Source: Escherichia coli (lineage in GTDB: Bacteria > Pseudomonadota > Gammaproteobacteria > Enterobacterales > Enterobacteriaceae). Taken from it: a stretch of 64,000 bases of DNA. Made by a program: the position numbers and the translations under genes. Below are positions 49,347-53,695 of this stretch, one piece after another. A model generated the notes under the pieces. It searched no databases and was not told the DNA's origin. It saw only the letters and a list, made by a program, of their open reading frames with translations. Position 1 is the first letter of the stretch. Every line of letters begins with the position of its first letter. The DNA is taken from assembly GCF_003334315.1 (NCBI RefSeq), contig NZ_QOWR01000012.1; one strand, 5' to 3'.

Positions 49347-50711
49347 ATGTCTTTCGATTCTTTGGGTTTAAGCCCTGATATCCTGCGCGCCGTTGCCGAG
49401 CAGGGTTACCGTGAACCCACCCCTATTCAGCAGCAGGCGATCCCTGCGGTGCTGGAAGGCCGCGACCTGATGGCTAGCGCCCAGACCGGCACCGGCAAAA
49501 CAGCGGGCTTTACGCTGCCGCTGTTGCAACACCTGATCACTCGCCAGCCGCACGCCAAAGGGCGTCGTCCGGTACGTGCGCTCATTCTTACCCCGACCCG
49601 TGAACTGGCGGCGCAGATTGGCGAAAACGTCCGTGATTACAGCAAATACCTGAACATTCGTTCGCTGGTGGTGTTTGGTGGTGTGAGTATTAACCCGCAG
49701 ATGATGAAACTGCGTGGCGGCGTTGATGTGCTGGTGGCAACCCCGGGACGTTTGCTGGACCTGGAACATCAGAATGCAGTGAAGCTGGATCAGGTTGAAA
49801 TCCTCGTCCTCGATGAAGCTGACCGCATGCTCGACATGGGCTTTATCCACGATATCCGTCGCGTGTTAACAAAACTACCTGCGAAGCGCCAGAACCTGTT
49901 ATTCTCCGCGACCTTCTCTGACGATATTAAAGCCCTGGCGGAAAAACTGTTGCACAACCCGCTGGAAATCGAAGTGGCACGCCGCAATACCGCGTCTGAT
50001 CAGGTGACCCAGCACGTTCACTTTGTCGATAAGAAACGCAAACGCGAATTGCTGTCGCACATGATTGGGAAAGGGAACTGGCAGCAGGTGCTGGTGTTTA
50101 CCCGTACCAAACACGGCGCTAACCATCTGGCTGAACAGCTCAATAAAGATGGCATCCGTAGTGCGGCGATCCACGGCAATAAATCGCAAGGTGCGCGTAC
50201 TCGTGCGCTGGCTGATTTTAAATCGGGCGATATTCGTGTACTGGTGGCAACTGACATCGCTGCGCGCGGCCTGGATATTGAAGAGCTGCCGCACGTCGTC
50301 AACTATGAACTGCCAAACGTACCGGAAGATTATGTCCACCGTATCGGGCGTACCGGTCGCGCGGCTGCTACCGGTGAAGCGTTGTCGCTGGTGTGTGTTG
50401 ATGAACACAAACTGCTGCGTGATATCGAAAAACTGCTGAAAAAAGAGATCCCGCGCATTGCGATTCCGGGCTATGAGCCGGACCCGTCAATCAAAGCCGA
50501 ACCGATCCAGAACGGTCGCCAGCAACGTGGCGGCGGCGGTCGTGGGCAAGGTGGTGGTCGCGGTCAACAGCAACCACGCCGTGGGGAAGGTGGCGCAAAA
50601 TCTGCAAGCGCGAAACCTGCAGAAAAACCGTCTCGCCGCCTCGGCGATGCCAAACCGGCAGGCGAACAACAACGTCGCCGCCGTCCGCGTAAACCTGCCG
50701 CTGCGCAGTAA
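49347..50711 (+). CDS. rhlE: ATP-dependent DEAD-box RNA helicase
   Basis: 454-aa ORF with Walker A (AQTGTGKT), DEAD box, SAT and HRIGRTGR motifs; Arg/Gly-rich C-terminal tail. Confidence 0.95.
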
Positions 50712-50762
50712 TCTTTTATGCCGGGCTATGCCCGGCATCAGGCTGATGAACAAACGCAAAAC

Positions 50763-50861
<99 letters not shown>

Positions 50862-50942
50862 ATTTCACAACAAGCACTTGTCAGCAATTTGAGAACACGG
50901 GAAAAAATTTATCTGTTTTACCGCCCATAAGCCACCGAGACG

Positions 50943-51425
50943 TTACTTCTCTATAGCCAATTGTTCGCGCAACTCCATTAAAAGGTAGCCCAGTCGATTC
51001 TTGCCCTTACCATTACCACCGTCTCCCCAGTAAGCATCGTTTTCCGTATGCTCAACCAGTTTTGCGGGCGCGGTTGCCTGCAAGAGCGCACGCAGTTCTG
51101 CATGCTGTTCGAATTTAGCGCGAAGTGCTTTTCGCATCACCTGTTCTTTGACCGACTCCCAGTTTTTACGCAGAGGCTTAGAACGATCGCGCCCCATGCG
51201 TGCGGCGACCATAGGGGAAGAAACCCGACGGATCTCTTCGCGGTATTTTTCATCAAGGAATTTTTGTGCCTGAAAATAGTGTTCTGAGGTGGGCCAGGTT
51301 TTCCCGTCAACCTTGATGGGCCAGGCGGCAAAGTTAGAAAAATCACCGTAGTCATCGCTGGTGCTGTAGAAATTTATGATGGTGTCTTGCATGACGTGTT
51401 GGATCCTTTGTGCTCGAACGGGCAT
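50943..51425 (-). CDS. ybiA: N-glycosidase YbiA (DUF1768 family)
   Basis: 160-aa ORF recognised as YbiA; divergent from dinG. Confidence 0.88.
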   Translation of the reverse strand: MPVRAQRIQHVMQDTIINFYSTSDDYGDFSNFAAWPIKVDGKTWPTSEHYFQAQKFLDEKYREEIRRVSSPMVAARMGRDRSKPLRKNWESVKEQVMRKALRAKFEQHAELRALLQATAPAKLVEHTENDAYWGDGGNGKGKNRLGYLLMELREQLAIEK

Positions 51426-51544: not shown

Positions 51545-53695
51545 ATGGCATTAACCGCCGCGCTTAAAGCGCAAATTGCCGCCTGGTATAAGGCGCTTCA
51601 GGAACAGATCCCCGACTTTATTCCCCGTGCGCCGCAGCGGCAGATGATTGCGGACGTCGCCAAAACGCTGGCCGGAGAAGAAGGGCGGCATCTGGCGATT
51701 GAAGCCCCCACCGGCGTTGGGAAAACGCTCTCCTATTTGATCCCCGGCATCGCCATTGCCCGCGAAGAGCAAAAAACGCTGGTGGTGAGTACCGCCAACG
51801 TGGCGTTGCAGGATCAGATTTACAGCAAAGATTTACCGCTGCTGAAAAAGATCATTCCCGATCTTAAATTCACTGCCGCTTTTGGGCGTGGGCGCTACGT
51901 TTGCCCGCGTAATCTGACGGCGCTCGCCAGCACTGAGCCCACGCAACAGGATCTGCTGGCGTTTCTTGACGACGAACTGACGCCAAATAATCAGGAAGAG
52001 CAAAAACGTTGTGCGAAGCTGAAGGGCGATCTCGACACTTATAAATGGGATGGTCTGCGCGATCATACTGATATCGCTATAGATGACGATCTCTGGCGTC
52101 GTTTAAGTACCGACAAAGCCAGCTGCCTCAACCGCAACTGTTACTACTATCGTGAATGCCCGTTTTTTGTTGCTCGTCGGGAGATTCAGGAAGCGGAAGT
52201 GGTGGTGGCAAACCATGCGCTGGTGATGGCGGCGATGGAAAGCGAAGCGGTATTGCCTGACCCGAAAAATTTACTGCTGGTGCTGGACGAAGGCCATCAC
52301 CTGCCGGATGTGGCGCGGGATGCGCTTGAGATGAGCGCCGAAATCACCGCGCCGTGGTATCGGCTACAGCTGGACTTGTTCACGAAACTGGTCGCTACCT
52401 GCATGGAGCAGTTTCGCCCGAAGACCATCCCACCGCTGGCGATCCCTGAACGTTTGAATGCGCATTGTGAAGAGTTGTATGAGCTTATCGCCTCGTTAAA
52501 CAACATTCTCAATCTCTACATGCCTGCCGGGCAGGAGGCAGAGCACCGTTTTGCGATGGGCGAACTGCCAGATGAAGTGCTGGAGATCTGCCAGCGGCTG
52601 GCAAAACTCACCGAGATGCTGCGTGGCCTGGCGGAGTTATTTCTTAACGATTTAAGTGAGAAAACCGGCAGCCATGACATTGTACGTCTGCATCGGTTGA
52701 TTTTGCAGATGAACCGCGCGTTGGGGATGTTCGAGGCGCAAAGCAAACTCTGGCGGCTGGCTTCGCTGGCGCAATCTTCCGGTGCACCGGTGACCAAATG
52801 GGCGACGCGGGAAGAGCGCGAAGGGCAGCTACACCTCTGGTTTCACTGCGTGGGAATACGTGTCAGCGATCAGCTGGAAAGGCTGCTGTGGCGCAGTATT
52901 CCGCACATTATTGTCACCTCCGCAACCTTGCGTTCGCTGAACAGTTTTTCGCGTTTGCAGGAGATGAGTGGTCTGAAAGAGAAAGCGGGCGACCGTTTTG
53001 TGGCGCTGGATTCCCCCTTTAACCACTGCGAACAGGGCAAAATTGTTATTCCCCGGATGCGCGTTGAGCCTTCCATCGACAACGAAGAGCAGCATATTGC
53101 CGAAATGGCGGCCTTTTTCCGTAAGCAGGTGGAGAGCAAAAAACATCTCGGTATGTTGGTACTGTTTGCCAGCGGACGGGCGATGCAGCGCTTTCTCGAC
53201 TATGTGACGGATTTACGTCTGATGTTGCTGGTTCAGGGCGATCAGCCGCGTTACCGTTTAGTTGAACTGCACCGCAAACGCGTCGCCAACGGTGAGCGCA
53301 GCGTGCTGGTGGGCTTACAGTCATTTGCCGAAGGGCTTGATTTGAAAGGTGATCTGCTCAGCCAGGTGCATATCCACAAAATCGCTTTTCCGCCCATCGA
53401 CAGCCCGGTGGTGATCACCGAAGGGGAATGGCTGAAAAGCCTCAACCGCTATCCGTTTGAGGTGCAAAGCCTGCCGAGCGCCTCGTTTAACCTGATTCAG
53501 CAGGTTGGGCGACTGATTCGAAGCCACGGTTGCTGGGGCGAAGTGGTTATCTACGACAAACGCTTGCTGACCAAAAATTATGGCAAGCGACTACTGGATG
53601 CATTACCGGTATTTCCGATAGAGCAACCGGAAGTCCCTGAAGGTATAGTTAAAAAGAAAGAAAAAACGAAATCCCCACGCCGTCGGCGGCGTTAA
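51545..53695 (+). CDS. dinG: ATP-dependent 5'-3' DNA helicase (Fe-S, XPD-like)
   Basis: ORF trimmed to MALTAALKAQIAAWYK (716 aa); Walker A (APTGVGKT), DEGH box, Fe-S Cys cluster. Confidence 0.95.
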   Translation: MALTAALKAQIAAWYKALQEQIPDFIPRAPQRQMIADVAKTLAGEEGRHLAIEAPTGVGKTLSYLIPGIAIAREEQKTLVVSTANVALQDQIYSKDLPLLKKIIPDLKFTAAFGRGRYVCPRNLTALASTEPTQQDLLAFLDDELTPNNQEEQKRCAKLKGDLDTYKWDGLRDHTDIAIDDDLWRRLSTDKASCLNRNCYYYRECPFFVARREIQEAEVVVANHALVMAAMESEAVLPDPKNLLLVLDEGHHLPDVARDALEMSAEITAPWYRLQLDLFTKLVATCMEQFRPKTIPPLAIPERLNAHCEELYELIASLNNILNLYMPAGQEAEHRFAMGELPDEVLEICQRLAKLTEMLRGLAELFLNDLSEKTGSHDIVRLHRLILQMNRALGMFEAQSKLWRLASLAQSSGAPVTKWATREEREGQLHLWFHCVGIRVSDQLERLLWRSIPHIIVTSATLRSLNSFSRLQEMSGLKEKAGDRFVALDSPFNHCEQGKIVIPRMRVEPSIDNEEQHIAEMAAFFRKQVESKKHLGMLVLFASGRAMQRFLDYVTDLRLMLLVQGDQPRYRLVELHRKRVANGERSVLVGLQSFAEGLDLKGDLLSQVHIHKIAFPPIDSPVVITEGEWLKSLNRYPFEVQSLPSASFNLIQQVGRLIRSHGCWGEVVIYDKRLLTKNYGKRLLDALPVFPIEQPEVPEGIVKKKEKTKSPRRRRR

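Follow-up and report, generated by a model that had tools for sequence, protein, structure and literature searches.

The subject of this report is the C-terminal tail of the DEAD-box RNA helicase RhlE, as encoded in a 64-kb stretch of Escherichia coli DNA (contig NZ_QOWR01000012.1), the whole of which is referred to here as the window. Residues 391–454 of RhlE, encoded near the 3' end of an rhlE gene at positions 49347–50711 of the plus strand, form a short, strongly basic, low-complexity segment which is predicted to be intrinsically disordered. This segment probably (we would put it at roughly 0.7) acts as a disordered cationic tether for RNA that also drives RNA-dependent condensation, carried on a canonical DEAD-box core. 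What was observed directly is the composition of the tail, its disorder prediction, its domain boundary, purifying selection on it, its modular conservation and a slippage polymorphism within it.

An earlier note on this DNA had described RhlE as ending in an Arg/Gly-rich low-complexity tail, typical of an RNA-binding or condensate-forming extension. That description of its role appears well supported by published work on RhlE1 and RhlE2 of Pseudomonas aeruginosa (PMC11260450) and by the basic tails found across the family. Because the interpretation matches published work, the basic disordered tail of RhlE-family helicases must be called already known, and the finding, though correct, is an ordinary one. 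Reviews have described basic disordered extensions at the C-terminus of bacterial DEAD-box helicases, RhlE among them, from 2006 onwards, and experiments dissecting them followed in 2021–2024. The additions made here are small, namely a boundary at residues 390/391, a modular map of the tail, an estimate of selection, the slippage polymorphism and a clade-specific end motif. Their practical use lies in the design of constructs, for which the boundary belongs at about residue 390 and not at 370–375.

Composition and predicted disorder of the tail

Composition was compared between the last 80 residues of RhlE (375–454) and residues 1–370 of the core. Arg, Gly, Gln, Pro and Lys account for 54 of the 80 residues (67.5%) against 30% of the core, an excess with a binomial P of 5e-12 at the core frequency, which bears out the low-complexity Arg/Gly-rich tail of the earlier note. 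The highest value reached elsewhere by any 80-residue segment, among the 51 open reading frames (ORFs) of at least 200 amino acids (aa) in the window, is 47.5%, and the mean over 14,209 such segments is 26.2% (standard deviation 5.7%). Hydrophobic residues fall from 32% in residues 1–370 to 5% in 375–454, where the isoelectric point (pI) is 11.7 and 19 Lys and Arg stand against 7 Asp and Glu. Both protein strings that the note had quoted are present, at residues 392–416 (nucleotides (nt) 50520–50594) and 441–454 (nt 50667–50708). The five residues which it named do dominate the last 80, but Ala, with 10 of 80, equals Gln in frequency and exceeds Pro and Lys. Within the 64 aa of residues 391–454 there are 14 Gly, 13 Arg, 9 Gln, 9 Ala, 6 Pro and 5 Lys; the 13 Arg and 5 Lys are set against 4 acidic residues, giving a net charge of +14, with a single aliphatic residue and no aromatic ones.

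The C-terminal part of the protein can be divided as follows:

50457–50516, plus strand: conserved, probably ordered post-core extension, residues 371–390 (model confidence, identity and substitution rates)
50517–50708, plus strand: predicted intrinsically disordered basic tail, residues 391–454 (structure model, charge-hydropathy plot and composition)

The check for disorder that the earlier note had proposed gave no sign of a structured tail. An AlphaFold2 (AF2) model, built on an alignment of 133 sequences taken from 150 representatives at 47–70% identity plus close orthologues, has a mean predicted local distance difference test score (pLDDT) of 88.2 and a predicted template modelling score of 0.80, and is confident over residues 1–390, with the core at about 95. 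The pLDDT is 97 for residues 371–380 and 89 for 381–390, and then falls abruptly to 50–58 for 391–454, a segment to which DSSP assigns no secondary structure and for which no confident contacts are placed. A single-sequence AF2 model was dropped, as its mean pLDDT of 39.5 was accompanied by low values over the helicase core too and so says nothing on disorder. On a charge-hydropathy (Uversky) plot, residues 394–454 lie on the disordered side (hydropathy H = 0.300, under a boundary of 0.490), whereas the core lies on the folded side (H = 0.470, over a boundary of 0.421). By these two computational tests, residues 391–454 are predicted to be an intrinsically disordered region (IDR). A search of the tail alone against solved structures returned no sequence match at E <= 10, which is expected of low-complexity sequence and uninformative by itself; the tail is covered by no solved structure.

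The extent of the tail needs a correction. The "last 80 or so residues" of the earlier note do carry the skew in composition, which runs over 375–454, but this span is about 16 residues too long for the disordered part, 391–454. In the AF2 model, some 16–20 residues at the start of the last 80 appear to continue the core in ordered form; there, segment 371–390 is a 20-residue coil that has no regular secondary structure and appears to pack on the core. Segment 371–393 has a mean identity of 0.88 across 115 Enterobacteriaceae orthologues and a ratio of non-synonymous to synonymous substitution rates (dN/dS) of about 0.06. Since residues 371–390 are both conserved and confidently modelled, they seem to belong to the folded unit. 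The boundary at 390/391 agrees with the behaviour of P. aeruginosa RhlE1 constructs, of which RhlE1(1–379) is poorly soluble and RhlE1(1–392) stable (PMC11260450).

A proposed cationic tether for RNA

In the proposed mechanism, the tail would act as a sequence-nonspecific, ATP-independent electrostatic tether that keeps RNA close to the core, and this tethering would raise the affinity for RNA and help to load the core onto duplexes. At high protein concentration, the same multivalent polycationic tail would give rise to RNA-dependent, salt-sensitive condensation (complex coacervation with RNA). Because the tail is free of aromatic residues, heterotypic coacervation with RNA would be expected rather than homotypic phase separation, an expectation which fits both the RNA requirement of the homologues and the appearance of E. 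coli foci on overexpression. RNA tethering and condensate formation are most likely properties of the E. coli tail itself, judging by homologues and the literature.

The P. aeruginosa helicases provide much of this background. The C-terminal IDRs of RhlE1 and RhlE2 supply most of their RNA affinity, and removal of the C-terminal extension (CTE) lowers that affinity 7- to 65-fold (PMC11260450). RhlE1 and RhlE2 lacking the CTE form no droplets, and their unwinding is abolished or strongly reduced (PMC11260450), with ATPase activity unaffected by removal or swapping of the CTE (18.2 vs 17.6 and 60.9 vs 78.5 per min; PMC11260450). RNA binding by the CTEs is independent of ATP (PMC8266600, PMC11260450). 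It persists when they are isolated, and they then phase-separate with RNA, in droplets that dissolve in 1 M NaCl (PMC11260450). For E. coli, full-length RhlE forms foci and undergoes liquid–liquid phase separation according to papers citing Hondele et al., 2019 (PMC7414142, PMC13106914), and co-localises with condensates marked by DeaD (PMC12758526); it is also reported to be enriched in large cross-linked particles. The E. coli protein unwinds blunt-ended duplexes (PMC1616957), which fits loading via an auxiliary RNA contact. When free it does not enter native gels, it is purified on heparin, and it precipitates with the acidic protein RraA (PMC3814787), all as expected of a polycation.

Several points weigh against assigning these functions to the tail. 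A pLDDT of 50–58 in the model is low confidence and no measurement of disorder. The foci of E. coli RhlE are reported, in the citing papers' account, "when overexpressed", and condensation by a short, aromatic-free tail may need overexpression. At 64–84 aa, where the family median is 156, the tail is among the shortest, and it has none of the aromatic residues which promote the homotypic phase separation of eukaryotic arginine-glycine-glycine (RGG) domains. A truncation or deletion of the E. coli RhlE tail, or its description as an RGG domain, was not found in the accessible literature, and dependence on the tail in E. coli would be an extrapolation from homologues with core identity of 43–51% and tails unrelated in sequence (PMC8266600). 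Finally, the conserved motif at the C-terminal end hints at a more specific role than a generic polycation would have.

Comparison with known systems

P. aeruginosa RhlE1 and RhlE2 resemble E. coli RhlE in having a RecA-like (REC) core, a short conserved post-core segment and a basic disordered CTE (PMC8266600, PMC11260450). However, there is no similarity in tail sequence: the tail of RhlE1 is Lys-rich and about 70 aa long, that of RhlE2 has 255 aa with Gly/Glu/Gln-rich stretches, whereas the E. coli tail has 64 aa, is rich in Arg, Gly, Gln and Ala, and ends in RRRRPRKP. The window protein scores below the NCBIfam cut-offs for both types, with 559.4 bits against 750 for NF053711 (RhlE1-type), in an alignment that stops at residue 382; for NF053710 (RhlE2-type) it has 622.9 bits, where the cut-off is 925. 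By sequence comparison, E. coli RhlE has a core homologous to the RhlE1 and RhlE2 types and a tail of neither type.

The condensate-forming DEAD-box ATPases of E. coli offer a comparison within the same organism, as they are reported to form foci in vivo and to phase-separate in vitro (Hondele et al., 2019, as related in PMC7414142 and PMC13106914). The tails of E. coli DEAD-box ATPases differ in sequence and in length, from about 70 to 290 aa (PMC1616957). A low-complexity or disordered extension flanking the core, a trait of the condensate-forming members, is present in RhlE.

With eukaryotic RGG/RG domains, the RhlE tail shares an Arg-Gly-rich disordered segment, including a tri-RG at residues 394–406. 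Segments of this kind in Dbp2/DDX5, Ded1/DDX3, LAF-1, DDX4 and FUS have degenerate RNA specificity and promote condensates. The RhlE tail is unlike them in having one RGG, no di- or tri-RGG, and an RG block of just 13 residues. Tyr or Phe is usually interspersed in eukaryotic RGG domains, and no aromatic residue occurs in the RhlE tail; arginine methylation, by which eukaryotic RGG domains are characteristically regulated, is not to be expected in E. coli. Data on the RGG/RG segments of FUS are available (PMC13106914).

The predicted layout of RhlE, with an ordered segment (371–390) followed by a disordered one (391–454), matches that of the mitochondrial DEAD-box chaperones CYT-19 and Mss116. 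In these proteins, the structured C-terminal extension is followed by an unstructured tail rich in Arg, through which the helicase is held nonspecifically on structured RNA, and this tethering lets the core act on nearby helices. They differ from RhlE in belonging to an unrelated lineage, and in that their structured extension is a helical domain where RhlE has a coil of 20 residues.

Modular anatomy of the tail and possible docking motifs

Among the Enterobacteriaceae, the tail has a modular build, with a tri-RG block, a variable middle and a clade-specific end:

50526–50564, plus strand: tri-RG block, residues 394–406 (regular-expression census)
50529–50537, plus strand: (GGC)3 triplet repeat encoding G395–G397, polymorphic among E. 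coli strains
50550–50558, plus strand: (GGT)3 triplet repeat encoding G402–G404, polymorphic among E. coli strains
50595–50684, plus strand: poorly conserved middle with two AKPA(E/G)...RR units, residues 417–446 (identity, unit counts and Tandem Repeats Finder)
50670–50708, plus strand: clade-specific C-terminal basic motif (the RRRRPRKP end), residues 442–454 (motif census, identity 0.73)

The 13 residues of the first block satisfy the tri-RG definition RG(X0-4)RG(X0-4)RG. The definitions of di-/tri-RGG and tri-RG motifs are said to be those of Thandapani et al. in 2013. Motif counts over the tail gave no di- or tri-RGG (RGG(X0-4)RGG) and a single RGG, at residue 394; on these counts a canonical RGG box was rejected, the tail being RG-rich (tri-RG) and "RGG box" an overstatement. 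A tri-RG occurs in just 7 of 136 distant RhlE-like tails. Across close orthologues, the RG/G block at 394–413 has an identity of 0.78 and the middle at 414–441 one of 0.37. The unit KP[ASTG][GEA][DENGK] is present from zero to four times in orthologue tails; of the AKPA(E/G)...RR-like units, E. coli has two, and orthologues of 479 residues such as P0085 and P0090 have three or four. Orthologue tails range from 77 to 175 aa, a spread which fits variable unit copy number together with a variable RG/G block. Tandem Repeats Finder returned a weak repeat (15-nt period, 1.9 copies, 50593–50621), a local duplication. A long DNA tandem array was rejected for the tail, since this weak repeat and a hairpin-derived hit were the program's only output.

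The end of the tail bears on a second reading, in which the tail would serve mainly for protein docking: short linear motifs in the RRRRPRKP end, perhaps also in the AKPA..RR units, would recruit RhlE to one specific partner (RNase E, RraA, poly(A) polymerase and the ribosome are examples), with RNA binding secondary. We consider this rather unlikely. The motif R..RR.PR[KR] is kept within the last 20 residues of 106 of 120 close (Enterobacteriaceae) orthologues despite the 37% conservation of the adjoining middle, but it is found in 0 of 136 distant representatives, and the terminal 13 residues have a dN/dS of 0.28 between E. coli and Salmonella, which is not lower than that of the middle segment. 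RNase E, poly(A) polymerase and RraA are in vitro binding partners of E. coli RhlE (PMC1616957, PMC3814787), although a mapping of partner sites onto its tail was not found in the literature. In P. aeruginosa, the CTE of RhlE2 is required, and by itself enough, for the interaction with RNase E (PMC11260450, PMC8266600), but this interaction is RNA-dependent (PMC8266600). The motif is itself an Arg run, equally suited to contact with RNA.

A narrower form of docking, which seems to us distinctly unlikely, is that the terminal motif and AKPAG(D/E)xPRR units form a specific linear motif which docks RhlE on a defined site, be it rRNA, the ribosomal channel or the helicase-binding region of RNase E. 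The only other match to [KR][KR]RRP.[KR]P among the distant representatives, KKRRPTKP, lies in the ArfB-like part of an apparent RhlE–ArfB fusion (P0124, described below), ahead of its basic C-terminal end, and would be a weak lead to the ribosome that also counts in favour of docking more generally. The basic C-terminal tail of ArfB binds the mRNA channel of the ribosome. If this form of docking were true, the tail would target RhlE to ribosomes.

Strain variation, selection and the remaining alternatives

The tail differs in length between E. coli strains by in-frame triplet slippage. The (GGC)3 repeat at 50529–50537 is reduced to (GGC)2 in strains CU39ES-1 and R32_14_1F, and the (GGT)3 repeat at 50550–50558 is expanded to (GGT)4 in an O157:H7 strain, giving a RhlE of 455 aa. 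Differences in GGC and GGT copy number between lineages thus yield RhlE alleles of 453, 454 and 455 aa, and in four E. coli alleles the variable positions number 6 of 84 in the tail against 1 of 370 in the core.

By Nei–Gojobori estimates, dN/dS is 0.019 in the core and 0.10 in the tail against E. marmotae, and 0.013 and 0.20, respectively, against Salmonella. The synonymous rate (dS) is not reduced in the tail (0.55 vs 0.44 in the core, and 1.15 vs 1.00). On these estimates, evolution of the tail is about tenfold faster than that of the core, yet the tail is clearly subject to purifying selection, as its dN/dS of 0.1–0.2 comes with a normal dS.

At the level of the RhlE-like family, tails of at least 50 aa are present in 125 of 137 representatives, with a median length of 156 aa. 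The net charge is positive in 132 of 136 representative tails, and the median hydrophobic fraction is 0.10. Mean identity of the family representatives to E. coli RhlE is 0.16 over the tail against 0.57 over the core. By these comparisons, the family conserves the physicochemical character of the tail and not its sequence.

Such data make it very unlikely that the tail is a low-complexity product of replication slippage, neutral in function, that the C-terminus tolerates. Glycine runs of strain-dependent length, changed by slippage of (GGC)n/(GGT)n, would suit that view, as would the weak conservation of the middle, with its zero to four units, and the lack of a known phenotype for rhlE deletion in E. 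coli (PMC8266600). However, the dN/dS values indicate that the amino-acid sequence is under purifying selection, nearly every family member retains the frame, the positive charge and the hydrophilicity, and homologous tails are functionally essential in P. aeruginosa (PMC11260450).

It is also highly improbable that the tail is an autoregulatory element which folds back on the core and modulates its ATPase. Some DEAD-box proteins have a core activity regulated by C-terminal extensions, according to general statements in PMC8266600, and segment 371–390 appears to be packed on the core in the AF2 model, but AF2 places no confident contacts for 391–454. The core is itself basic (pI 9.5), which makes docking of a +14 tail unlikely, and the ATPase activity of RhlE1 and RhlE2 is the same after removal or swapping of the CTE (PMC11260450).

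The idea that the tail is an annotation or frame artefact, or that its DNA codes in another frame, has a negligible chance of being right and was rejected: two shadow ORFs of 103 and 90 aa (50458–50769, plus strand; 50487–50759, minus strand) overlap the tail and one alternative plus-strand frame is stop-free across it, but open alternative frames are expected of low-complexity DNA with 67% GC, all changes in tail length are in frame, indels of 3 nt leave the rhlE frame intact in E. coli strains, and it is kept across genera to the shared terminal motif, the tail dS is at least that of the core, so that no second frame is under constraint, and the NCBIfam RhlE model covers residues 1–454.

Gene identity and the helicase core

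The folded part of RhlE, which would receive RNA from the proposed tether, is that of a canonical DEAD-box helicase:

49347–50711, plus strand: rhlE coding sequence, 454 codons, with a TAA stop at 50709–50711
49419–49934, plus strand: RecA-like domain 1 (Pfam DEAD, PF00270), residues 25–196, E = 5e-49
50040–50363, plus strand: RecA-like domain 2 (Pfam Helicase_C, PF00271), residues 232–339, E = 4e-30

The ORF list and translation give a single plus-strand ORF of 454 codons followed by TAA. The gene is 100% identical in DNA to rhlE of E. coli HS30-1, and the order cecR(ybiH)–rhlE–ybiA–dinG, annotated in that identical strain, is reproduced by matching ORFs in the window. On the NCBIfam equivalog model for RhlE, NF007882, the protein reaches 981.6 bits, where the cut-off is 743, with its residues 1–454 aligned to 1–456 of the model. 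A match to at least 80% of the gene is found in 5424 of 5426 complete E. coli genomes, under the annotation "ATP-dependent RNA helicase RhlE"; two genomes lack it, and two of the matches are on plasmids rather than chromosomes. By every membership test applied to its sequence, the window protein is assigned as the DEAD-box RNA helicase RhlE.

DEAD-box motifs Q, I (AQTGTGKT), II (DEAD), III (SAT) and VI (HRIGRTGR) can all be read in the translation. Residues invariant across the 133 aligned sequences are F3, Q28, T47, G48, G50, K51, T52, D156, E157, D159, S187, A188, T189, H331, R332, G334 and R335. Past residue 339, there are no Pfam domains. The best matches among solved structures are DEAD-box helicases, for example CshA, DDX46, Dbp2 and Vasa. 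Sequence matches to solved structures end at about residue 365–380, with a few extending into the low-complexity part; the phmmer alignment with yeast Dbp2 (8ark_A) reaches residue 418, inside the RG block.

Neighbouring DNA and related proteins

At 50718–50738 on the plus strand, beginning 7 nt past the stop codon of rhlE, lies an inverted repeat of two perfect 9-bp arms around a loop of 3 nt, ATGCCGGGC-TAT-GCCCGGCAT. As it lacks a following T-run, it does not qualify as a canonical intrinsic terminator, and may instead stabilise the 3' end or serve as a processing site. A scan for promoters and terminators gave counts at shuffle expectation and no canonical terminator after rhlE. The rhlE–ybiA intergenic region also has sequence resembling repetitive extragenic palindromic (REP) elements, at 50785–50827 (minus strand) and 50831–50866 (plus strand). 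In the same region, Rfam reports the small RNA ES036 (CssrF), whose 43.3 bits exceed its gathering score of 37.6. A second, partial match, to naRNA4 (CssrE), falls short of its gathering score of 59.5, at 40.7 bits.

Further downstream, ybiA (NADAR family) is annotated in E. coli O25:H1 CU39ES-1 (locus L002, 1995–2162) as an incomplete pseudogene with the N-terminus missing. The gene dinG (51545–53695, plus strand) encodes the DNA helicase DinG, which also has a short basic C-terminal run (...KKKEKTKSPRRRRR). The ORF list starts dinG at a GTG at 51410, overlapping ybiA, and RefSeq places the start in the identical strain at the equivalent of 51545.

Two RhlE-like proteins from outside the window have unusual architectures. 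P0124 (535 aa; L007 1501–3108 and L008 395–2002) has an RhlE core at residues 1–374 and a complete ArfB domain in place of the disordered tail. Over residues 403–532, GGQ motif included, it reaches 176 bits on the ArfB equivalog NF006718, for which the cut-off is 100. ArfB is an alternative ribosome-rescue peptidyl-tRNA hydrolase, and this natural fusion would link an RhlE-family helicase to ribosome rescue. The ORF is present in two independent assemblies, where it is followed by a DbpA-like helicase gene, and it is the sole RhlE–ArfB fusion among the 150 representatives. P0121 (1780 aa), the best-scoring representative in a search of 1.8 billion proteins, contains three separate RhlE-like stretches and may be a multi-helicase fusion or an artefact of gene calling or assembly.

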